Shown one piece after another: positions 3,057-62,673 of a stretch of 64,000 nucleotides of DNA. The notes beneath the pieces are model-generated. The model saw only the letters and a list, made by a program, of their open reading frames with translations. It was not told the DNA's origin and did not search any database. This DNA comes from Ginglymostoma cirratum (Eukaryota), in the NCBI GenBank assembly GCA_024137785.1, contig JAHRHZ010000025.1, positions 28,655,178 to 28,719,177 on the forward strand, given 5' to 3'. Numbering within the stretch: position 1 is the stretch's first letter; the number at the start of each line of letters is the position of its first letter. Position numbers and translations under genes: made by a program.

Positions 3057-4285
3057 CAAAGTGAATATGATGTTTGGTTGCTGGGAGGGGAGGGGCAAGG
3101 ATGCCAGGTTAGGGATCAAGCTGGGAGGGGTAGGATACCAAGTGACAAGAGAGAGAGAAGCAGGTAAGAGATGCTGCGTTTAGAGCGCAGGAATTGGGTT
3201 TTCCCGGGGCTGGAAAGTGCTGTCAACTCTGGCAGGGGGAGGGTCTAGATGCAGGGGGAATGAAGGGGGCTCAGACTGGGTCATGTCTGGGGAGTTAACT
3301 GCTCTGGAGGTGGCCATCTTAGGGGTGTGTGAGGTAAGTATGCGATCAGTTCACTAGTTACTGAGAAGTTAGACTATGTATTATGTCTGGCATTTACTGA
3401 GAAACTATTTAATCTCATCGCAACAACGCAAACTCGCCGATTTAAATTGAGATTTTAGGGGGATCCCAACATAGCCGAAATTCCCAGTGGAAAACTCAAT
3501 TTCCTGTGCAATTGCTTTGGAGTTTGCTAAGAATGGGATTCCATAGGGGCCCAATGCAGAACTCCCACCTACACTGCCTGGCCATCAGAAAATCTGGCGC
3601 ATTATATTTACAGTACTTACACTTTTTACCTACTGATCTCTGGCTATGAATAATTTGTAAAATGCACCAGATATAAAGGTCCCAATTTAAACCTTTGTGC
3701 CCAATAATGAGAGAATGTCAATGATACTGGGATTGGAGATTAGGATTCCTCAATTCAGACCCCGTATGAAGCTTATGCTAAAAAACAGTCAGAGATTACT
3801 TAATATTGAAAAGTGGCAGCTCAATAATTCCCTGGGTGCAATGAGTTACTTTCAACTCCATCACAGGGCAATCCACTGCGAAGCAGCATCATCATCTTGG
3901 CAGGAGAAGTCAACTGGCCAGAATAGGCCTAAAATAGTACCTGTTTTTCAAGTCCTGGTTGGCCAGGATATGCAGGGGTACTGAGCTGATCTCAAATGCC
4001 CATATCCTTCCTGACAATTGTGCCAACCTCTCATTTCACCAGATCCCATCCCATCCCTCTCCCTGACTGCTGGCAGTATTCCTGCAGACACTAGCTGTAG
4101 CCTCATATCATTAATCTGTACTCCCACTCTCTAGCTAGACTCTCAATCTGGCCAGCTGTAGAAGGGAGCCTGCACTGATTCACCTAAATGAGGACTTGCC
4201 ATCGAGATCAGCCTTGTTTCCATGTCCTCAGCCTTGCCAGATTTGGTGTTCTCCCCCGAATCTCCCACTCCACATAGACCCACCA

Positions 4286-27006: not shown

Positions 27007-28599
27007 AGACTGATTAGCCAGATGAAGACTGTATTTGGAATGTCCAGCAACTGATAAAACAAAAAGATAACCATTCCTTTGCTGTTAAAGATCCTTTATG
27101 TAATCATAAAATTTCTTATTGATTTTGATGTCCCTTGCAAGTTTCTTTTCTAATCCCTTTCTGTATTTTATCTAAGCTGCTTTGTGGCCCTTTTCTGGTC
27201 TATTGTGGGGGTCTGTGACCTTACTGGTACGTTAGAAATAGGGAGAAGAGCACAGTGCAATTATCGGTTCTGATGATAAATAGGACTTAATAATCCTGGA
27301 TGAATCAGTGACGTTCCAGCGCTAAATCAACAACAGCTTGCATTTTATAGTGCCTTTAACACAAAAAGTCCAAAGAAACTTATCTTTGTTGAGTCATGAA
27401 AGGTAAAATTTGGATGGTTTGACCAAAACCTTACTCATGGGATGGGTTTTAAAGAGCATCTTAAAAGGTGAAAGACGGATTTATGAATGTTAGATTATTG
27501 AATTATGAAGCACAAAGAATTTTTGGCGGGGGGGGAGCGGTATGCAGATTGAAATTATTCAAACAGTATTTGGGAGTTGTGGGAGGGGCAGAGGAATGAT
27601 GAGGTCATTTGGGGGTGGCAGAGATTCAGACAATAACTCCTAATATTAACGTAGTGCCTTTACCTCAGCAAAACGCCCCAAGACACTTAACCATTACAAA
27701 TCATTGTTTTAAATTTGCAGTCAATTCAAAAAAGTCTTCAAAAACTCTCAAATATGATTTGACAAATATGTGCGTTAATGAGAAATAAATCAATATCTGA
27801 AGGAACCACATCTTTAATACGGCAAGGCATTTTGCATAGCCCACAAAAATGATTAAACATTTCTTGCCCAGAAAAAATCTTTCAATTTTTTGCTCTGTCT
27901 TTGCCAAGAATTCTACTTCTGTGGGTAGACAGCTAATGGTGAATTTAATCACATCTGTAAATGTGAAAGGTCTCTGATACACGGTCTCAGTCACAATTAA
28001 ATCCCATTTTGTTCAAAGTGTGTAGCCCCCTTTTAATTCCTCATGTAAAAGTCACAGGTGGAATTTAAGCAGCAGCTCCCAATCAAAATCAACTAATTAC
28101 ATCTCACTTGCGAAGCACATACTCTTTTTGTGAAAAACTGTGACCAGAACACAGTGAGATAAGAATTTATACATACTCTTACAATGTCAGTCACATTTGT
28201 ATTTTATCTATCAGAGGATAAGTTTCTTCAATGGTTCCACTCAACCTTTTCTTTTCTAGTCTTGTGTTAATTTAATAACTTTAAAAAATTCCACTTCATT
28301 GACTGAAACCATCATTGATTGGCAAAGTCGTAACAAAAACAGGAACACAGCTGTAGGAGCGAAGTGTGCCTTTTTGAAAATAATGTACAGGTGTTCCAAC
28401 AGGAAGGGAAATGTTTATATGCAGGCTCAGTTCCTAAACCAGGCCCTGCTGTTTCACGGCTGCTGTCAGTGATATTTCAGTCACATGGTCGCACCAGAAC
28501 AAACACTATCTTGCTCTGGTACAGATATGCAAGAGTTGCCGATGTGTTGTTCTCTCCAATTTTCCATGTTTTCTTGTCAAATATTTTTGCATAACATTC

Positions 28600-47314: not shown

Positions 47315-48277
47315 TTGACAGGATGCAGAGCTGGACAAAGAAGTGGCAGATGGAATTCAACCCAGGAAGGTGTGAAGTGATTCATTTTGAAAGGTTAAAT
47401 TTGAATGCAGAATACAGGGTTAATGGTAGGATTCTTGGCAGTGTGGAGGAACAGAGGGATCTTGGGGTCCACGTCCATAGATCCCTCAAAGTTGCTACCC
47501 CAATTGATAGGGTTGTAAAGAAGGCATACCATGTGTTGGCTTTCATTGGCAGCGGAATTGAGTTTAAGAGCTGTGAGGTTATGCTGCAGCTCTATAAAAC
47601 CCTGATTAGACCACACTTGGAATACTGTATCAGAGATAATAGGAACTGTAGATGCTGGAGAATCCGAGATAACAAGGTGTCGAGCTGGATGAACACAGCA
47701 GGCCAGGCAGCATCATAGGAGCAAGAAAGCTTGACGTTTTGGGCCTCGACCCTTCAACAGAAAATGTGTTCAGTTCTGGTCGCCTCATTATAGGAAGGAT
47801 GTGGAAGCTTTAGAGAAGGTGCAGAGGAGATTTACCAGGATGCTGCCTGGACTGGAGGGCAGGTCTTATGAGGAAAGGTTGAGGGAACTAAGGCTTTTTT
47901 CATTGGAGAAAAGAAGGATGAGAGGTGACTTGATAGAGGTGTACAAGCTAATGAGAGGCATAGATAGAGTCGATAGCCAGAGACTTTTTCCTGGGGCTGA
48001 AATGACTATTACGAGGTGGCATAATTTTAAGATCATTGGTAGATATAGGGAGATGTCAGAGGTAGGTTCTTTACACAGAGTGGTGGGCGTGTGGAATGCC
48101 CTGCTGGCAGTGGTAGTACGAGTCAGATACTTTAGAGAATTTTAAGTGACTCTTGGAAAGGCACATGGGTGATAGTATACTGTAGGGTATGCAGGATAAT
48201 TTGATCTTAGTAGGATAATAGGTCAGCACAACATTGTGGACTGAAAGGCCTGTATTGTGCTGTACTGTTCTATGTAC
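47315..48277 (+). mobile_element. 5'-truncated CR1 LINE, ORF2 C-terminus and 3' UTR, split by a Penelope-like insertion
   Basis: KWQMEFNPGRCEVIHF...LYKTLIRPHLEYC | VQFWSPHYRKDVEALEKVQRRFTRMLPG. Confidence 0.9.
47630..47764 (-). mobile_element. Penelope-like terminal fragment inserted in CR1
   Basis: same family as 16959/21245; mutated hammerhead core. Confidence 0.75.
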
Positions 48278-49089
48278 TGAAAATTTCCTAAAAATAGTGT
48301 ACACCTGAAACAATAACTATTTTTCTTTCCAGATGTGGTCCAATCTGCTTACTTCCAATGTGGTCTAATTCTACTTCATTTCAAATTGACTTTAAAAAAC
48401 ATGCAGTACCTAATTTTCAGTTTCCAAGTAGCTTGCTAATCCTTCAATCCATTAGGAAAAGAATCTTTATGAGCTGCAATTGTGCCTTTTGTTTTTTAAT
48501 AAAGGCATAAAAAAATTCTTGTGATGCAGTGGTAGTTTCCCATCTTTGGGCTGGAAAGACCAATTCACATCCCAGCTGTTCAGAGATGGATCATGTCTGA
48601 ACAGATTGATTAAAACATTATACAACAAATGGAATTTAGCACCCAAGCCTGAAACTAGCATGAGGCCCCTTCTTTGCATGTGGAAAGACTCTAGCTTGCG
48701 AGGTGCTGGGAGAACTAACTGCATTCGAGATGGAAACACAGAGGAGGTTACAATAATATTTTGTAAAACACTGGATCAGCCAGACTAAAATGCCACATTT
48801 CCCATTATAATGTGAACATGAAGAAATGGCAGAAGTAGCACTCTCTTCCACTTGTGCTGAATGTAACACATTAGGCATGATTAATAAAATGGACCAAGTC
48901 AGTCAGGTATAATTCCAAGAAAATACTCTGACCCCGTGGACACAAAGTCTGTTCTGTTTTGACGTTCAGCCTGTCTGGCAATCTGCACTGCTTATGGCTG
49001 TAACCCCACTACAACATGATCATGTTTCCACATTGACAATTATTCATGAGGCAGGATAAATTATTTATAAAGGAGTCAATGGCCTCCCC

Positions 49090-51659: not shown

Positions 51660-51759
51660 AAAGTTGAGTCAAAACAAATTTTATTTTAAAGAATGCATCA
51701 AATACGTCAATGCTGCACCCAAGGTGAATATTCCAGGTTCTCCTCCTCCAAACACGATC
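51660..51759 (-). other. SFPQ: candidate distal terminal exon of an alternative SFPQ transcript
   Basis: tttttttcattctcttactag| acceptor, AATAAA at 51680-51685 followed by T/GT-rich sequence. Confidence 0.6.
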
Positions 51760-52368
51760 CTAGTAAGAGAATGAAAAAAATGTCAGGTCTGAGGATTTAT
51801 TCGTTTTAAACAGTCCACCACAGACATTTGCCTGCCACAGTAGATTCAACTTTGCAATGCAGATGGTCAAAAAATGAGTTAATTGAAAAATAAATCTCTC
51901 TTGCTTTAAAAAAGTCAAATGATCTAGCAGATGTTAGAATGACCTGGGTTCAACCTCAGTAACAAACATGGCAGATGAATACTAAAGGCATTTAGCCCTC
52001 CGACTGGAGGCTTTCAAAATCTTATCGTGACTTAAGCATGCTGCGGAATGTTTAGCTGCAAAGCATATACCCGGACTATTTCAGAAGCTAGTTTATTGCT
52101 GATATGGAGATAATATTAGGACACCTTAAAAAGGTGAGCAAACCAAAGCAAGCAGAACTTGTCATAACATTCATACTGTATGAAGTCAGCAGCTCAAGTT
52201 GTGTCTCAACTCTACCCAAGACAAAAGACCCCAATTTAGTTTAGCTGCCAAGCCCATGTAAATATTGGTTATATTCAAACCCACATGATACACACACAGT
52301 AGTGACAAATGCAAGATTGGAGGAAAACAAACCAAAAGAGGCCCCTAGGAACAAATCAGAACACCTAC

Positions 52369-52498
52369 CTTTTCAGAAATATCCCAGAATGCATCCATGT
52401 CCTTCAACTTTTGCACAACTCTATGCACCCTCACTCTTTCATTTCTGGTGACTGACCAGATGTGAAAAACATTCTGGTTTTATCACATTTCACAGGAG
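52369..52498 (-). other. SFPQ: candidate downstream non-coding SFPQ exon (130 nt)
   Basis: very strong acceptor (T-run, C-run, tcacttgcag|) and AAG|gtaggt donor; stop codons present. Confidence 0.62.
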
Positions 52499-52979
52499 CT
52501 GCAAGTGAGGGGGGAAAAAAAAAAAACATTGTCGGAAGCATACCCTTATTTACTAGCTGAACAGGCTCCATATTGTTTATTCACAAAGCTAGGAAATCAA
52601 TTATAGTTTGATACTCAGGTTAACAATCAACTCAGCAGACAGGGAATAGCAATAATGCCATAAGAAACCCTGCTCACAGCAAAAGTCCAACAATCTTAAT
52701 TTGAGGATGATCATATGCAAGGGGAAACATGAGGAACACCACAAAATTCAGAGTGTTATTCCGAATCTCACCTCTGAAGGAAATCTGAACATTCTATGTA
52801 ATGGAAGGCCTGAAACCTTTATGTCAACCTGTCTGATACCTTGCTGCACACACCCCTTTAGGAGTGGGGGCAGTGCTAGCAGGATCACTAGTGTCAAGGC
52901 CACAAGTCATTTTCAAAAACATTTGGGGATCTGCAATTCTACAACAAGTGCTTGGAAATTTACTGTTTAAGATTCTTGA

Positions 52980-53465
52980 AGATTTATAGCTCAGGGTGTG
53001 GAGGTGGTTGCTGGTTTGCTCACTGAGCTAGCTGGTTGTCATACCTGTTTTGTAACCATGCTAGCTAACATCACTGCGGCCTCTGATGAAGCGATGTTGT
53101 TCTAGTCCCCTTGGCATTTATCTGATGTGGTCTATTAAGTTGGGTTGTCTCATTTCTGGTTCAGTTCTGCACACTTTCATATGCAATCCAATTCCACATG
53201 TTTGTTGATTGCATTACAGGTTGAAAACCAGGCCTCTAGGAATTCCTGTGCATGTCCATGGCTGGCTGGAGCTAAAATAGTCAAACAGATGCAGAACAAA
53301 ACCAGAAATCAGGCAACCTAACTTAACAGACTGGATCATATACATACCAAGCAGAGTAGAATGATATTGCTTCATCGGAGGCCGCACTGATGACGTTACC
53401 TAGACTGGTGACAAAACATCTGCATGATAACCAGCCAGCTTGGCGAGCAAGCCAACAACCTCATG
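52980..53465 (-). mobile_element. Penelope-like element remnant: GIY-YIG endonuclease C-terminus flanked by inverted termini
   Basis: minus frame HAQEFLEAWFSTCNAINKHVELDCI (PLE EN C-terminal motif); arms ~53005-53105 and ~53355-53460 are inverted. Confidence 0.75.
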
Positions 53466-56086
53466 ACAAGATGGTCTCCAAAGTACTAACGTCAAGCAAC
53501 ATGATTTATGTTTCAGACAGATACTGCAGCATGAACTGATCAAATAGCTACTTACTTGCATCTTTACTGCATCAGAGTTTCAACATGCATCAAGCCCTTT
53601 CCATGCCTAAAGGAAATACAACAAGTTAATAAATACTTATCACTCCAATGCACAGCAATTCTCAACTCAGTTCTACAATAACCCAAAAGGTCAGATTACT
53701 TCAGAATAGCCATGCAAATCTATCCCAGATGTAGACCTGGAATAGAAAGGCTGACTGAACCCCTAACAGCCTGCGTGGTGCTGTAACTATTAATATTTTA
53801 TGGGGCCAGAATAGAAGAGCTGAAGTCAAAATTAAGGGTACATACAATTCATCCAAACTGTAAACATTTCAGTGGTTAGCCAGAAAAGTACAGTATATTT
53901 TTACTGACTAGTCTGACAACCCTACAGAAAAGATGCAAAATATGCATTTGTGCTTTAGGCCCAACTTTTCCTAAACTAGTACACTAGTGAAAAATTCTCA
54001 GCATAAGAGGATTAAACTTGCTGTTAATGCTAAAGCTTTGGACAGGCCAATTAACAGCTGACCAAGTTGGCACAAAAATGCCTAATCAGGCATGATTGCA
54101 TAGACGGGAAACTACACCCACATCTTGGAACACAATATTCTAGCCTATTTTGCAACACTGAAAGAACATGTACCACATATCCCTATTATGTTCTGGCATC
54201 ACTTTTCTGAACAGACATTCTAGTCAAAAATTGAAGCCAATTGCACTGGGAAAGCTCAGGCACACAAGAATTTAGATGGAATACAGTGTAGACACTTTGC
54301 TACTAAGTTTTAATCCCACTTGCAAGTCCAGTGCAATAAGATGAAACATCACTTCCGCTCGAGGGACAAGCCACTGATGACATTTACACAAGAAAAAGCA
54401 TTTAATTGCTTGGTCTACAGATTTGCTAAAATTTGACCTAACAGACAAGTTACATCTCCCATAAATGGAATACAAATAGCAAATATTATAGGTTCAAGAC
54501 CTGGAGCAAGACCAATCTTGCAGTTAGACCTGTGGAACAAGCTGCAATTTACACAGATTTTAAAGGAATGGTGCCAAAATCCTAGCATTGCAGTAAGACA
54601 GAATTCTAGTGGCACAAGACTGGAAAACATTAGTCCCAGACCACGTTTTTCATATCTGTACCACCCCAGGACTAGAACTTCACAGCATTTCATTTCATCT
54701 AAAGCAGCTGAACAACTAAGCAATCAATAGCAACACCAATATTCTTGATTTGGTTAGCCATCTCTAGGCAATTTCAGGGATAACTGGCACAAAATTTTAA
54801 TCAGCTCATTCAGTCACGTTATGACACCTCTGGAGCTCGCAGGACTTCAATTCAGACCTCAAATTTATACAACAAATGCCTTCACCACACTTTACACTTG
54901 ATACTGATGGTGATCCATTGTGATATAATACAGGTCAACTTTATGCTCTGAATTGATTATCAAGCCTCCTTTGATTAAAATTCAAAAACAAACTAATTTA
55001 GTGAATGAAGCCCAAAGCAATACAATTAGGCTATGGCCTAATTCAATTGCACATATACAAAGTGAACTTTAACTATTATTCATGAAATGCCTGAATAGGC
55101 AAATGGACAGCACAGAGCCTAAGGACTTAGTTTCTACTGAAATATCAAAGGATTCCATTGTATTTGTTCTGATCAGAATCCTAGATACACTTGAAACCCA
55201 AGCAGTGAAAATTCATCACATTTACAGTATTTCAATCTTCACTACATGTTTAAATCTGTCATACGGCTCTGTGGTAAACATCTTACACATAGGTACACAA
55301 GGTCTGGTCTCAGGGATTTCAGGTCAGATAACTCAATGGCAAAGATTGCTGGCAGTTAGTCATTGCAAGCTGGCTTGGTAAAACTGAAACTAAGTAATTT
55401 GTCCAGTCTCCAAGCTAAGCCAAAAATACAAGCGTAACACCAAATACAATAAGTCACTATATAATAGTTATGCATTTGATGGGTAGGTGTCTGATGGAGA
55501 TTCAAGAGGAAGTGAAAAGTTTTTCTAATCCCCAGCACAGTTCCCCAAACCCAAGTAGGCGTACCAAGTTACCATCTCATTTATACAATGCAGGCAACTG
55601 CCCAAATAGTCATGGCGTTTTAGTTTTGCAAGTATTATCTATGGTGCTAAATGGCCTGGAGTACATTTATTCATTATATACAAGTAGATCACATTGCTGC
55701 TTTGTAGATGTTCTGGCAAAGCTTGAAAGTGCACAGTATGTAAAAAGACAAGTTTAAATACTAAACCACAACCTTCCTGTTCACGGTCTAAGTCACAGCT
55801 TTGTTCAGCTCAAAAAAAGGTACAAGGCAGAAAGCGCAACTACCCACTGTTGATAATTCAAGGTGCCAGTGAAGTGTCAATGTTGTGACTGCAGTATTCA
55901 AAAAGTGCATACTAGCTGTACATCATTTGGGCCATTATACTCTGATACCAAATCAGTATTCACTGGTAACAGCCCAACCGTAAGTGGTACACTGTATTTC
56001 CACAGTCAGAAAGGTGATGCCCGAACCATTATACTCATCTTTAAGAAATTACGAAAGACATTTGTTAACAAGTTATTTGTACATAC

Positions 56087-56348
56087 CTGTATGCAGTCTT
56101 TATTGTGTAACGCAGAACAAGCAGGAATACTATTCTCCAGGTCTTACTGCCCAATCCCATTTGCAGTACTACAGATCCTCAATGCAATGTATTGCAGACA
56201 AGCTGACTGTATTTATTCACTGTAGAGCGGCATTACTTGCAAGGATGCAGCACAATTGGCTGCCAGCAGCCGCTTGCTGGCTTGTAACTCAGATGCGTTG
56301 CCATGTAACCTGAGAATCTGAAACTGTTATAACTGCCACTGAAGAATA
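56087..56348 (-). other. possible downstream non-coding SFPQ exon
   Basis: cttgtcttccccag| acceptor, CAG|gtatgt donor; internal AATAAA; pairing of these sites is uncertain. Confidence 0.3.
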
Positions 56349-57237
56349 CTGGGGAAGACAAGTTATTTCAAGTTGTGCCCAAACTTAGTGGGCATTGCAA
56401 ATTCAGCACCTAAATGCCTAAACAGCAACAGCTAAATCTTTGTATTCAGATTAGCCAATACCATAAATCAAATTCAAAGATGTGAAATATGTTGTTTAAA
56501 AAGCGGGGCATTTAACTTGACAGGTGTTCATGAAATTATACTGCAGGCATCTCATGCAGTATTTTGATTTAAGTTGAAATTCAATATTATGTAGAAAGGG
56601 CATTTCAAAAAATAGCTCGAGTACTGCTTGCACAGCCTAAATTGTTAAAACACCCAAAACAAAGGACTAATTTAATACAAATTCAGGTCTCTAGCTGCAA
56701 GTATATCACAAAGCTAGTTTTTCAAATTTGAGGTGAACCCTTAGGCTTTCACCCACAGCTGAATAAGCCAAACCAACTTTGTTTATGATGGATTCCATGT
56801 TCAAATACAGCAACTCTGCCAAGGAACGGCAATGAAAATTATTGCAAGTTTGCAAAGGTTATCCAACAGGAAATCAGAGCAGCTGCTCATTCAAACCCCC
56901 ACCAGCTCACAGAGTAATTTTATAGTTGCACACTTATTTTGCCAGAAGTCAAATTTGATGGACCAATACCAGATTCTGTACTAAAGAAATATTTAGGCAT
57001 AAAGGACTTATGGAATGTCAGATTAAAATTAAGCCTTGCTCCAATCAAAGAAACTACACTCAAAGAAACTTAAAACCCACCATCCCGGAATTTAGAACTT
57101 CTGATCTTGGATTACAATAATTGCTCAGTATATTAATTCTCAAGATTGAAATTAAAGTGGAGAGCAGCATCTAAAGGCACGATTTGTTTCTACGTCCAAA
57201 CCCCCATCCCCACACACAAATAAGTTTTAACACTTAC

Positions 57238-57320
57238 CATTATCACAATCCTAAAGCAGCAATTTTGACACTGCATGCTACTGCTTGGTTCCAGTTACCC
57301 ATCGAAGCTGTTCAGCTTCT
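57238..57320 (-). other. SFPQ: candidate downstream alternative SFPQ exon (83 nt, early stop AGA AGC TGA in phase 0)
   Basis: cttctgtaccctctgcctag| acceptor and ATG|gtaagt consensus donor. Confidence 0.6.
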
Positions 57321-59449
57321 CTAGGCAGAGGGTACAGAAGTCACGTTCTGGTAGTCCGGGTATCCTGATGCAAATTCATTCCTACTGAGTACATCTGCAG
57401 CTCATCTTGCTACTGGTTTCCAATTGTGACTTTCCAATCAGAATTCCCATTCACAAACGCAGAATGGCCAAATTTTCCAAAACTCAAGGTTAAACTTCCA
57501 TAAAAGTTATTGGTTGAGGAGCCCAAGTTGGGTCAGAAGGTTTAAACAAAAGCACTGTGGACCATTAACTGCAAGTCTTTTAAGTGATCATGTTTCATGA
57601 CATATGAAGTTCATTTAGAAGTTAAAACTGTTTAGATGTCCTATCACATGCAAGATCCTGTCCCAATTTTTCAGCACTACTGCCCAAAACTGAAAGACCC
57701 TATTACAGCCAAGTTACTTAAAAGAACTCCCAACTCCAGCTATGATTCCATAATTAGCAATGTGTTGATGCAATAGAATCATGCACTGAACAGTGGTATA
57801 AGATTTATCTTAAGTACTCGTACTCTTAGTATATAGATTTTACACACCTTACTATATTGTCTAGCCCGACCAAAAAAACCACCACTTTCATCAGGATTGC
57901 TCAGTTTGCAGAGTTGCTATTTGTAACTGGGATATTGCCATTCCAGGTTTCTTGCTGTTAATCTGACAAGACTCGACGTATTGGTTTACAGACCTAGCAC
58001 TCAACACTTAGTGTCTAACTTGACTGGTTATTGGTTGCTATATTCAACATCTCAGGCACTTCAAGCCAGATGAGTAATGCAGTTTTTAAATAAGCCACTT
58101 AGGAATTCAATACACTGAACAATGGAGTGTAGTTTTGTTGCAAAACATGTTTTTAATAGGCTTGAACTTAGGCCAGCGGTGATGTTTCAAATTCTGCCAT
58201 GTGGCCGAGCAAGATCAAATTTCAGTGATTTAAAATGGACCCAAATAATAAAGAAGTGAAACACGCTATTTTGGTATTCCATGTATTCTGGAAAGATACT
58301 GTAGCAATTAGATCAAAATCAAGATAAGCATTCATTTAGAGAAGTCTATCCAATACACTGAGAATTATGCACATCACCTGTGAGGCCTGTTTGAGCTCTA
58401 ATCAGATGTGCCACTGCCGTGAGGACAAATCCAAGCAAGTAAGCTGTTAAACTGACTTCATTCACAAAACCTGAAAATGAACAACTTTGTCCTTTTCCAA
58501 ATACAAAGGAAGGTGGTAACAAGTGTCTGATTGCCCACCACAAATCTAAATGCAAAAACTGTTGTATATCCTTGGACTATGGACCAAGTGAACCAAGGAT
58601 AATCCTTGGGTTGTGCCAACCAACACAGTCAATAGTACAGCACTGCAATGGAGTTTACATCTATGGATTGACAAGGGAAAATTGTCAGCCAAAGCTCCTG
58701 ATCATCTAGTAACCCTTAATTATGCAAAAATTGTGCAGGGAAATCAAGCTTGGCTTCAAAATTAAACAGTTTCACCACAATCTAAATTCTCATGAGTCAC
58801 TTGACATTGATGCCCAGGGCACTGCTGGTAATCATAGCTTCTCAGCACGAAAGACCTTCTGAAGAGAAAGTTGCAATAAGTTGTGAACAGAAGAGGAAGA
58901 AAAATTTGAAATACAGGTGTGCTTTGCATAATCAGTCAAAACACAGTTAACATGTTTTGTAGTACCAGCTACAATAGAACCTTCCTTGTCCCAATATCTA
59001 TTTCAGAACATGCAAACCAAGATAGAATCGCCAGAATGTCAGTAGACTTCATCCCACCCCAGCATAGACTGGATTTGACTGCCAAAAACACTTCTGGGAA
59101 GAAAAGGAAAATCTTTTACAAAATACAAACGTTAGAACAATCCAGCCTATATCCAAAACTGAAGCCACAAAAATTTAAAAGAAAATCAATTCTTCCAGTT
59201 AACACAAGCCAATTAGGTGGCAATTTAAATGTAAATGGGTCCAGAAATTTCAGCACTGCAGTTTTAAGTTTCACAAGATCTTTTCCAAGACCTAGATTCA
59301 CCCCCTCTGTGTGGCATTAAGACACGATACAAAGCTAGCCAAAGTAAAAAAAGTTTAAAAAACCAAACTCAGGCCTAAAATTGGTACAACTTAAAATACA
59401 AGATAATAAATAACCATGACTAAAGGTTTTGTTTTCAGTGCACTTAGTT

Positions 59450-60005
59450 TCCATTGGAATCTTACCTTATTTTATTAAACAACTCCAATAAGTGATACAC
59501 AAGAGTTTGCAAACATTAGTAAATGCAACACTTGGTCTCACTTAGCAACCAGAGAAGTTGACAACTATGCTGCGACTTTGCTCAGTTAAAAAATCATTTC
59601 AAAATCATGAACACTATGAATGGGTTTTAATTTAAAAAGACGCACCAAAATACAGAATGCCACCATTTCAAAACAGGCTTTTAGCCTACACAATTTAACA
59701 TGCTTCTAAAACAATTCAGAACAAAAAAAATACATGGAGCATACTTTCTAGAGATTTAATGGCACGTCAGCGTACACAGTCAAAAGTACTGGGAAAAGAT
59801 GCCTATGTGCACTATCACTGTTGTTTGACATAATTCAACATTCATAATGTGCCAGCGTGACTTGTTACAGTTTACAAAGTTTTATCAATACACAAATCTA
59901 TATAGGCATAAAATGCAACTTTGCCACCAACTAAAAAAACGCAAGAATGAAGAGTTCAAGTCTAAATGAAAGACTAATCTGGAATGCACTACAGCACTAT
60001 GAATT
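59450..60005 (-). other. SFPQ: SFPQ canonical 3' UTR with poly(A) signal AATAAA at 59471-59476
   Basis: AU/U-rich sequence after the stop; TTTATT on + at 59471-59476; 3' end approximate. Confidence 0.6.
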
Positions 60006-60140
60006 CTAAAATCTAGGCTTCTTTCCGCCTGCTTCATATTCTTCTCTCCCTCTACTAAAACTAGGCCCAGTAGGCCCCATAGGACGGGGGGGCTGAGCAT
60101 TCATTGGACCTGGGGCTCCCTGTCCAAAGCGGTCATTACG
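60006..60140 (-). CDS. SFPQ: SFPQ last coding exon, RNDRFGQGAPGPMNAQPPRPMGPTGPSFSRGREEYEAGGKKPRF*
   Basis: ctctcccaatag| acceptor, 44 codons + TAG; homologous to the SFPQ C-terminus RTERFGQGG...GRGREEYEGPNKKPRF including the terminal NLS; missed by the ORF track. Confidence 0.97.
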   Translation of the reverse strand, partial: RNDRFGQGAPGPMNAQPPRPMGPTGPSFSRGREEYEAGGKKPRF

Positions 60141-60352
60141 CTATTGGGAGAGATTTTAAAAAGTTCATCATACATGAAAGCATTCAATGTCCATTAAGTT
60201 GCACGCGACAAAGTGAGTAAAATGTGTAACATTAGGTCAGGGAAGACATCCGCAGTCAATGTTCGTCGATTACAACCAGGAATGGGGCGATCCACAGGTA
60301 CCAGGCACATAAAAAGAAAAAAAGAGGGCAAGTTGTTCATTAGTTTACTGAC

Positions 60353-60397
60353 CGGTACATGGAGGAATCCAAGGTGGGTATAATCCTCCCATGACGA
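60353..60397 (-). other. SFPQ: candidate alternative micro-exon in SFPQ last intron (45 nt in frame, SSWEDYTHLGFLHVP; or 55 nt from acceptor at 60407)
   Basis: donor CCG|gtcagt at 60352; two AAG acceptors (cacaag|, gttcttaag|); CpG-containing, non-repetitive block. Confidence 0.5.
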
Positions 60398-62527
60398 CTT
60401 GTGATAACTTAAGAACAGTGGCTATTTGCTTGTAGTGCAAGCAAACCACTATTATCAACACAGGAATGCATTCAAATATGCACAAGTCTGATATGGGTTG
60501 ATAGATATATTTACATTATCATAACAATCTCCACATCATAGTTTTTCAGAGATGCAGAGCTTTAACACTTCAAGTTAAATAGCCTCTGCCCTTAATGAAA
60601 GTCACAAGTAACCAACTTATCCCAACCCACCTTTTCCCCATTTTAAATGCAAGCTGACCAATGATCCAGTATTGTTGTACATGTTCTGCAAATTTTCAAG
60701 TAATGCAGTGGCTGCTGAGCATAAGGATTTGACAGTACAAAGCTAAACTTTAGACAACTTCCACTAGTTAAAGCACCAGAAGAATGCGTACATCTCCCTG
60801 TGTTAGGGAGTCACTCTTTAATGCATGTTGGTTTGGATTAATTAGGAGAAACTTGACTACACTGATTATTTTTATTCCAGCAGGCAAGAAAATTTATAGT
60901 TACAGTACAGCACAAGTACGACAACACTGGATCAGCATTACTATTAAAGTTTAACTGGGTAAAAATGTATACTCTACAAAACATTACTCATTAAGTGCAA
61001 AAAGGTAATAGGACATTCCCTCAATGTTCAGTTTAAAATGCCTAACGTAATTTTACCACTTGCACAATACACCTCAAACTGAGGTTGAGCAACTGGGTTT
61101 GCCATGACCAATGGCACATTGATGTGCTAAGGGAGGGCACTCTTATAATCCCTCCTTCACTCAAAAGCAGTTTTCATTGTGGCAAGACAGCCAAACTAAG
61201 GCTGGCAAACACTCAGAAGACCAGAGGATTTTAACAAGTTGCAATGTGTTAATGTGGCAGCATTAGTACTAACCATCCCACTCACAATCGGAACATTAAA
61301 ACCTAATCAATCATTGATTATCTAAAGCAATCAGTGCTCACCTCCCTCGTATGCCACCCAAAGTGTGCCACATAGTCACAAACTATCAAATCAAACTGAC
61401 TGCATCACTTCACTGTACTAAACCAAACAGACGGTCAGAATCAGTTTTTTGATGCAAGGAGATGAGATTAGACAGCAAGGTGAACAGCTCAACCATTGCA
61501 GATACAATAGGACAACTGGCTTTTTCTCATGTTCCAATATGCAAAACTACATGGCTGCCCACTTCAAATGAAAGATCATCTGCAATGCAGAAGAGTTATT
61601 GTCATTACAATACTGCCTAATTTATTTTGATAAAAGCACCACTTATTGTGCAAACACATTGTTCTAGGTTTAGTTTACACTAGCAGCTGCAAATGCCAGC
61701 CTTCAGATCGGAAACTGGAATTTTACTGCAATTTCCCGCAGAACAGGAATTGGTAACTTATCAATGTGCTAAGGTAAAACAAACTTCTATCATGCAAGCC
61801 TTTCTTCCTTAGTACTCAAGTGACCAGTTTCAATCTGGATCAAGATGCCAGTCAGACCAGTCATCAGTAACCCAATAACGGCTTGGGAAGTTTACGTTAA
61901 CCTAGAATAAATCACTTATGTATCTGATCTGCCTCAACATACCCATCTCAAGCACACAAACTATTGTCTGCCCTAAGACTGTAAACAAAACATTGACTGG
62001 CAAACCAGGTTAGGCAAGTAGTTATTTCAAGTTTTAAAACATGCAATTTTGCAATTTGTTGCAGTGTATGCATGTTCTTGATCATTTCACTTGTAATAAG
62101 TATTGAAACTAATGTTGACACAGTTAGACTTCAGGAGTTGTAAATAACAATTAGACCACAGTGATCAGATGGCATGACATAAAGCATCTGATTAGTCTGT
62201 CTGCATTGATGATCAGATTAACATATCACAACTAAGTGCACATTCCTGAAACTGAATCCTCCCACAAAATCCATGCTGAAACAGCATTGCTTATGGTAGC
62301 TTATTCAAGCTGCCTCTACAGTCTGTTATTTTGGTACTTTGTTTCAATAAGTAATTAAGCTTTTGCTAAAACAAGCGTTCCCACCCCTCCAGTCCTTAGT
62401 ATCCTTGTACATTTAGTTGTTCCAAGATCCCAACAAGCCTTTTCTTCATACCATACACACACATTCATTTCACTTTGCAATCCAACCATACATCCAAGCA
62501 TTCACTCCTAACCACAGTACACTTTAC

Positions 62528-62673
62528 CCCTGCTATGTCGCTGGTGTTTCCACTGTTGCCCATCATCTGTCCAGTCATTGCACTTGGTCCTCCAGGGCTA
62601 TTCATTGCACTGTGACCTTCATAGCCCATTGCTGCCATTGGTGGGAAGCTTTGGTTTGTAGCAGCATATTGTT
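62528..62673 (-). CDS. SFPQ: SFPQ penultimate coding exon, (E)QYAATNQSFPPMAAMGYEGHSAMNSPGGPSAMTGQMMGNSGNTSDIAG
   Basis: tttacatttcag| acceptor, GGG|gtaaag donor; 146 nt, phase 1 to 0; resembles SFPQ ...FPP...GYE...MSGSMMGSDM segment. Confidence 0.92.

Follow-up and report, generated by a model that had tools for sequence, protein, structure and literature searches.

What decides whether an SFPQ transcript ends with the exon that encodes the nuclear localization signal (NLS) or with an alternative 3′ end? The question is raised by a stretch of 64,000 nt of Ginglymostoma cirratum DNA (GCA_024137785.1, a 4.36-Gb assembly; contig JAHRHZ010000025.1, 28,655,178-28,719,177), referred to here as the window, whose coordinates are used throughout. 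The 3′ end of SFPQ lies on the minus strand, close to the right-hand limit of the window. The gene had been assigned to SFPQ from the sequence, and this stands: the RRM2 exon just outside the window scores 189.9 bits for SFPQ in phmmer, against 170.7 for NONO and 169.5 for PSPC1. The first SFPQ coding exon (L002, ~3330-3980, outside the window) encodes a short N-terminal region and crosses RRM1 without an intron. In human SFPQ, the same part is split over two exons and the N terminus is longer. With exons numbered as in human, exon 9 (62528..62673, minus strand), the penultimate coding exon, has a donor, GGG/GTAAAG, that joins both exon 10 and exon 11, as seen in RNA joints and sequence. Intron 9 (60141..62527, minus strand; 2387 nt) separates it from the coding part of exon 10, the canonical last exon (60006..60140, minus strand). 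The C-terminal KKPRF encoded there is the NLS by comparison with the human protein, whose cNLS is described at the extreme C terminus (PMC12372870). We propose that the 3′ end of intron 9 likely uses a distant branch point 200 nt upstream of the acceptor, which probably makes the NLS exon slow and regulatable relative to exon 11, whose inclusion is predicted to lead to decay.

Which RNAs are made? The RNA came from one raw, unstranded poly(A) run (X21; 24% of its reads). Between 59950 and 62650, 1020 reads were placed, and all joints and loose ends were called at a floor of three reads from two starts. The exon 9-10 junction has 159-160 reads, and the use of 60140 as the acceptor of the NLS-encoding last exon, claimed beforehand, is borne out by 160 of these. 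Exon 9 is also joined directly to exon 11 (acceptor 53606) by 41-42 reads. Intron 9 is partly retained in poly(A) RNA: its depth is ~11-25 vs ~190 in exon 10, and unspliced intron 9 contigs are found in three organisms. RNA contigs lose minor forms (X17 is without even the 9-11 joint) and so were not used to judge absence. The poly(A) library X21 yielded no lariat read from this species, and run X22 yielded no reads on SFPQ. Exon 11 (53556..53606, minus strand; 51 nt) adds eight residues and then a stop. Among the joints listed, its isoform continues on the minus strand through an optional non-coding exon within an inverted repeat (53045..53271; joints with 27 and 51 reads) and another non-coding exon (52369..52498; joints with 66, 51 and 72 reads) to a terminal exon (51668..51759) with its poly(A) end at 51668, where reads end, with a poly(T) loose end at 51664 and AATAAA at 51685. 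Because spliced junctions follow the exon 11 stop by 24 and ~154 nt, the exon 11 form is a predicted NMD target.

The alternative 3′ region has further features of its own. Two or three non-coding exons lie 3′ of exon 11 (51668-53606). The extra downstream exons of SFPQ are described as having arisen in mammals (PMC12372870), and those seen here may have been gained separately, with the NMD trigger preserved. At 53024-53441 (minus strand), RNA reads carry partial T>C changes on the plus strand (A>G in the sense direction), such as 13/38 at 53024 and 30/66 at 53319. These sites sit in the inverted repeat of the alternative 3′ region and look like A-to-I editing. RNA coverage is continuous over 53556-60141, with single contigs running from exon 10 to exon 11; this agrees with the human gene, for which a long 3′ region, retained or extended, has been described. 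Elsewhere in the window, 47336-48300 holds a multi-copy repeat that is strongly expressed and has numerous loose ends in every run.

What is unusual about the 3′ end of intron 9? First, the minus strand is free of AG over 205 nt (60143..60347). This is the longest AG gap of the window on either strand, ahead of runners-up of 177 and 141 nt between AG starts. The zone’s own composition predicts 7.7 AGs, and only 13 of 200,000 mononucleotide shuffles are AG-free, so the original prediction of an AG exclusion zone was correct. The second-longest gap, at 27460-27637 on the minus strand (177 nt between AG starts), is C-/A-rich, has no clear tract or exon, and is probably compositional. Second, the 5′ end of the zone carries a branch-point motif, GTAAACTAAT (60339..60348, minus strand), in which the A of CTAAT lies at 60340, or −200 from the acceptor. 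Third, the motif is followed by a polypyrimidine tract (60311..60331, minus strand; 20/21 pyrimidines). Over the 8-30 nt 3′ of the CTAAT, the pyrimidine fraction is 0.91, the highest among the nine yUnAy motifs in the zone, just as had been noticed at the outset. Fourth, the tract is followed by a conserved 62-nt block (60249..60310, minus strand), a candidate regulatory element, and then by a less conserved spacer (60195..60248, limits approximate, minus strand) that is longer than that of human in a by-eye comparison. Branch-like motifs nearer the acceptor lie at −116, −97, −92, −78, −74, −54 and −35, those from −97 to −74 within the spacer. The weaker motifs named in the original prediction as a caveat are among these (−97, −92 and −74).

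The element looks more like a site for protein binding than like a folded RNA, because no stable structure is predicted. RNA folding was no better than shuffles in five windows and the whole zone (z −0.71 to +2.21); the 62-nt block gave z +1.4 with no stable fold predicted, and the paralog elements discussed below gave z +0.5 to +0.7. The zone has no tandem repeats, and an Rfam scan of the window gave no match. Compared by eye with human, one short hairpin shows what looks like a single compensatory pair, but only part of the predicted folds contain it, and we do not claim it. Scanning the genome with a permissive pattern of the element was uninformative, with 429 matches vs 1189 for a reversed control.

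Is the distant branch point used? Human SFPQ has an identical GTAAACTAAT, keeps the tract, has the same acceptor context by eye, and matches 60310-60249 at 52 of 62 positions, also by eye, in the human sequence as printed. Branch points have been mapped in human by lariat reads in a table whose rows carry no gene names; we tied rows to the SFPQ acceptor through an hg19 coordinate presumed to be that of this acceptor. This coordinate agrees with the motifs as printed, with the distance of −162 and with the scale shown in the browser. All 11 branch positions tabulated within ~170 nt of the acceptor fall at −131 to −171; the interval from −6 to −105 has none, and one further row coincides with the acceptor (PMC5378181 Table S5). 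The A of the orthologous CTAAT, at −162 in human, satisfies six of seven quality criteria, all but usual position, and is the best-graded (PMC5378181 Tables S1, S5). It has a mismatch in 8/8 lariat reads; non-A tract positions have 35 and 18 lariat reads with no mismatch, vs the 8 at the A, among the rows listed, and four other non-A positions, all distal, have mismatched lariat reads (PMC5378181). Printed predictions for the human acceptor (entry IDB1147464.9055) give a zone of 183 nt and a branch point at −163, together with higher-scoring branch predictions at −82 and −16 (PMC1431707 supplement 2). A distant branch point at 60340, as originally proposed, is thus well supported: human SFPQ keeps the motif, and lariat reads place branching at it in that gene; the A in this genome presumably branches as well. 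Conservation was judged from human entries, two relatives and paralogs. In organism C, the last 588 nt have 3.9% substitutions vs 9.9% elsewhere (p=1.8e-6), in pieces that include ~30 nt of exon, with two unalignable stretches excluded.

The three DBHS genes date from early vertebrates, and the genome contains the other two: PSPC1 (183.5 vs 164.5 bits) and NONO (159.5 vs 157.0, a marginal difference). Their last-exon acceptors, placed by reading frame rather than RNA, have AG-free zones of 158 nt (NONO) and 248 nt (PSPC1). At 20 other acceptors of the three genes (5 RNA-confirmed and 15 frame-inferred, with one SFPQ acceptor left unscored), the zone measures 16-59 nt when taken to the likeliest AG and at most 78 nt for any candidate. 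A CTAAT lies at −156 in NONO and −191 in PSPC1, followed by a tract and then by GGTAC, which aligns with the start of the SFPQ 62-nt block; counterparts of the tract are present in human SFPQ and PSPC1 too. Near the AG, the pyrimidine fraction of the NONO and PSPC1 last acceptors is only 0.45, and weak near-AG tracts (0.41-0.55) are found at other acceptors of DBHS genes too. The SFPQ-PSPC1 and NONO-PSPC1 alignments beat 500/500 dinucleotide shuffles, and the SFPQ-NONO alignment alone is not significant (57/500 shuffles), all with scores that pyrimidine tracts inflate.

How general is the layout? The human NONO last acceptor was located by a presumed coordinate. Because all four branch points listed there are proximal (PMC5378181), the layout is probably not universal. 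The supplementary entry for human PSPC1 has a zone of 172 nt and the motif at −166 (PMC1431707 supplement), and a long zone is present at 5/5 DBHS last acceptors whose sequence was compared (human SFPQ and PSPC1, as printed; SFPQ, NONO and PSPC1 here). A human PSPC1 branch point was not found among the tabulated rows at the coordinates presumed for it, which may be wrong (PMC5378181). At the other end of the intron, the penultimate-exon donors of NONO and PSPC1 (contigs C16 and C264) have the same unusual context, ATG/GTAATGTAT; the printed human SFPQ intron 9 begins with GTAATGTAT, and SFPQ here differs. The intron 5′ end may be part of an ancestral module. The PSPC1 last exon (contig C264 near 24818630) ends KVHSRF, without the basic cluster of SFPQ and NONO.

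How might this architecture control the choice of 3′ end? In this species, U2 would branch at 60340 and scanning by the spliceosome would run from there to the first AG downstream, following the scanning model (PMC1431707); AGs would therefore be purged from the zone. The long distance between branch point and acceptor would slow exon 10 and so give exon 11, which lies another 6.5 kb downstream, the chance to compete. By analogy, DBHS proteins would putatively repress exon 10 through the tract and block, and the element, which would be ancient, is likely to serve as a candidate splicing dial for protein level. A micro-exon would not be needed. The human isoform known as altSFPQ is reported to arise by direct exon 9-11 splicing, to be NMD-sensitive and to be favored by SFPQ itself, and the autoregulation is described, in the text available, with no mapped element (PMC12372870). 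Several points count against this explanation: a second CTAAT (−92) and a CTGAC (−97) within the zone, the larger lariat read counts at non-A tract positions in human, SFPQ binding reported as widespread over the 9-kb region, and the modest effects that distal branch points had in three minigenes (PMC5378181).

A more far-reaching version is tentative, and we give it somewhat less than even credence: the branch point, tract and block could form a cis-regulatory module from a single ancestral DBHS gene, through which DBHS dimers divert SFPQ and PSPC1 from the NLS exon to unproductive 3′ exons. If true, the module would supply the mechanism so far lacking for the increase in PSPC1 and SFPQ mRNA after NONO loss, which is reported to occur without mutant-mRNA decay and, in the parts of the report available, with no cis-element named (PMC13648420). 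It would also be a control point for ALS-linked altSFPQ, and human NONO, which seems to use a near branch point, would have dropped out of the circuit's targets. SFPQ loss is reported to raise intact paralogs (PMC13648420); these may include NONO, which would fit the ancestral module less well.

What else could explain the layout? The best-surviving alternative, which we consider rather unlikely, is that the distant branch point merely delays splicing so that exon 11 competes, with regulation coming from QKI against SF1 on ACUAAY, from PTB, or from elsewhere in the region, and not from DBHS feedback on the block. Distal branch points have indeed been linked to delayed splicing (PMC5378181). 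ACUAAY is present in four of the five elements, QKI is reported to compete with SF1 at ACUAA branch sites (PMC13004596), and antisense oligonucleotides (ASOs) placed close to the splice sites of exon 9 or exon 11 are described as shifting the human ratio. However, delay alone leaves the 84%-conserved 62-nt block unexplained, and the ratio is reported to be moved by SFPQ dose itself (PMC12372870).

The other alternatives concern the donor-like site CCG/GTCAGT (60347..60355, minus strand), whose G at 60352 lies 12 nt before the branch A, and the nearer branch-like motifs. With a 7/9 fit, this site is the best donor-consensus match of the 175 GT sites in SFPQ intron 9. It could act silently as a decoy for U1, which, once bound 9-12 nt 5′ of the branch A, would hinder U2 and favor retention or skipping with no splicing at the site. 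Decoy donors are reported to act in this way, without being spliced, in SF3B1, OGT and SNRNP70 (PMC7373989). NONO of this genome has a tied-top donor match (2 of 438) 9 nt before its branch A, and it is because of this match that we rate a decoy as improbable instead of discarding it. Organism B shows no difference at the site among 40 of its 61 differences listed, which is weak evidence. However, the pattern was noticed post hoc and the site occurs in only two of the five elements, being missing in human SFPQ, human PSPC1 (by eye) and this genome’s PSPC1 (4/9 match); and all five have a GT at 7-9 nt 5′ of the A, which makes donor-like matches likelier. A shade less probable again is a shift of branching in this species to the −97 and −92 motifs in the longer spacer, with 60340 secondary. 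Both motifs, CCCTGAC and CCTAAT, are of good quality, and pyrimidines make up 0.74 and 0.70 of what follows them. However, the exclusion of AGs continues for another 100 nt upstream, and human SFPQ has a higher-scoring predicted site at −82 with no lariat listed there.

The donor-like site was originally read as the donor of a micro-exon. The sequence and its 12-nt distance from the branch A are as described; use as a donor was not seen. Neither the donor (60352/60353) nor the seven AGs upstream has a junction, loose end or depth step of at least three reads among 1020 reads of one library (tissue unspecified, 24% of reads), vs 160 + 42 exon 9 junction reads. Read depth around the site is flat (25.0, 22.8, 22.4). 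For this one library, micro-exon use thus stays below ~1.5% of the reads in which exon 9 is spliced. The seven AGs have pyrimidine fractions of 0.50-0.65, and there is no good acceptor upstream of the site. NMD alone poorly excuses the absence, because the exon 9-11 form, itself a predicted NMD target, is seen. In human, the MAJIQ analysis names only 9-10, 9-11 and retention in the text available (PMC12372870). The expected lack of 60353-to-60140 junctions did hold in the 1020 reads of this library. Routing to downstream exons fared less evenly: such exons exist, but exon 11 is reached straight from exon 9. Thus, although the intron’s best donor match, the missing junction, the existing downstream exons and the ability of distant branch points to enforce mutual exclusion (PMC1431707) are all compatible with a micro-exon ending at 60353 whose donor blocks splicing to exon 10 and routes the RNA downstream, this is very unlikely: the outcome named beforehand as refuting it, a donor neither used nor conserved, is largely what was found, and no good acceptor lies upstream.

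What is new here, and why does it matter? The human zone and branch point are already in print, unnamed, in supplements (PMC1431707, PMC5378181), and the switch of SFPQ to an NLS-less, NMD-sensitive isoform has been published as autoregulatory and raised in ALS neurons (PMC12372870). A full-text literature search, which covered few subscription papers, found no description linking the branch point to the isoform or to a family-wide element. In the main texts, “branch” occurs 0 times in PMC12372870, and SFPQ occurs 0 times in PMC1431707 and PMC5378181; the validated distal branch points of PMC5378181 Fig. 4 could include SFPQ. The ~100-nt stretch common to the paralogs offers a target for mutation or for blocking with an antisense oligonucleotide; the published ASO walk, as described, went over the splice sites of exons 9 and 11 rather than this stretch. 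In addition, variants that create an AG up to ~160 nt before human exon 10 are predicted to disturb SFPQ.

How does SFPQ intron 9 compare with known systems? First, alpha-tropomyosin exons 2/3 (cited in PMC1431707) share with it a branch point ~175-200 nt upstream with its own tract, and steric mutual exclusion of that type had been predicted here. The 12-nt distance is real, but SFPQ here has no used upstream exon near the branch point reaching three reads in one library, and the donor is not in human; SFPQ intron 9 does not show this type of exclusion. Second, decoy exons (PMC7373989), as described in the text available, resemble it in their setting: a splicing-factor gene, an intron of >1 kb that is partly retained, and a donor-like site inside that intron. 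Their rare junctions are best seen under NMD inhibition; in the one untreated library used for SFPQ here, none was seen, and the site has no decoy acceptor and is not conserved to human. Third, the locus has three features of the Gooding distant-branch-point class, in which zones of at least 150 nt are reported for 165 of 67,334 human introns (PMC1431707): a zone of 205 nt, a branch motif and pyrimidine tract at its 5′ end, and conservation in the human ortholog (183 nt) and paralogs without a tandem repeat. Fourth, PTB exon 11/nPTB exon 10 (PMC1940037) likewise involve paralogous RNA-binding proteins, a long AG exclusion zone, a distant branch point, extended conservation and an unproductive NMD outcome, the last being predicted for SFPQ here from the premature stop in the exon 11 frame and the joints downstream. 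The same layout recurs in the DBHS paralogs, with human NONO an apparent exception at its presumed coordinate. In PTB/nPTB, a cassette exon is skipped and repression by the protein through the zone has been shown, whereas in SFPQ two alternative 3′ exons compete, the alternative protein loses the NLS, and such repression is putative, by analogy. Finally, a further close counterpart is human SFPQ intron 9 with altSFPQ. The zone is 205 nt here vs 183 nt there, and the donor-like site is found only here. Both species have the acceptor, branch motif, tract and block, as well as the 9-10, 9-11 and retained forms, and in both the short, NLS-less alternative C terminus (seven residues in human SFPQ, eight here) is followed by further introns.
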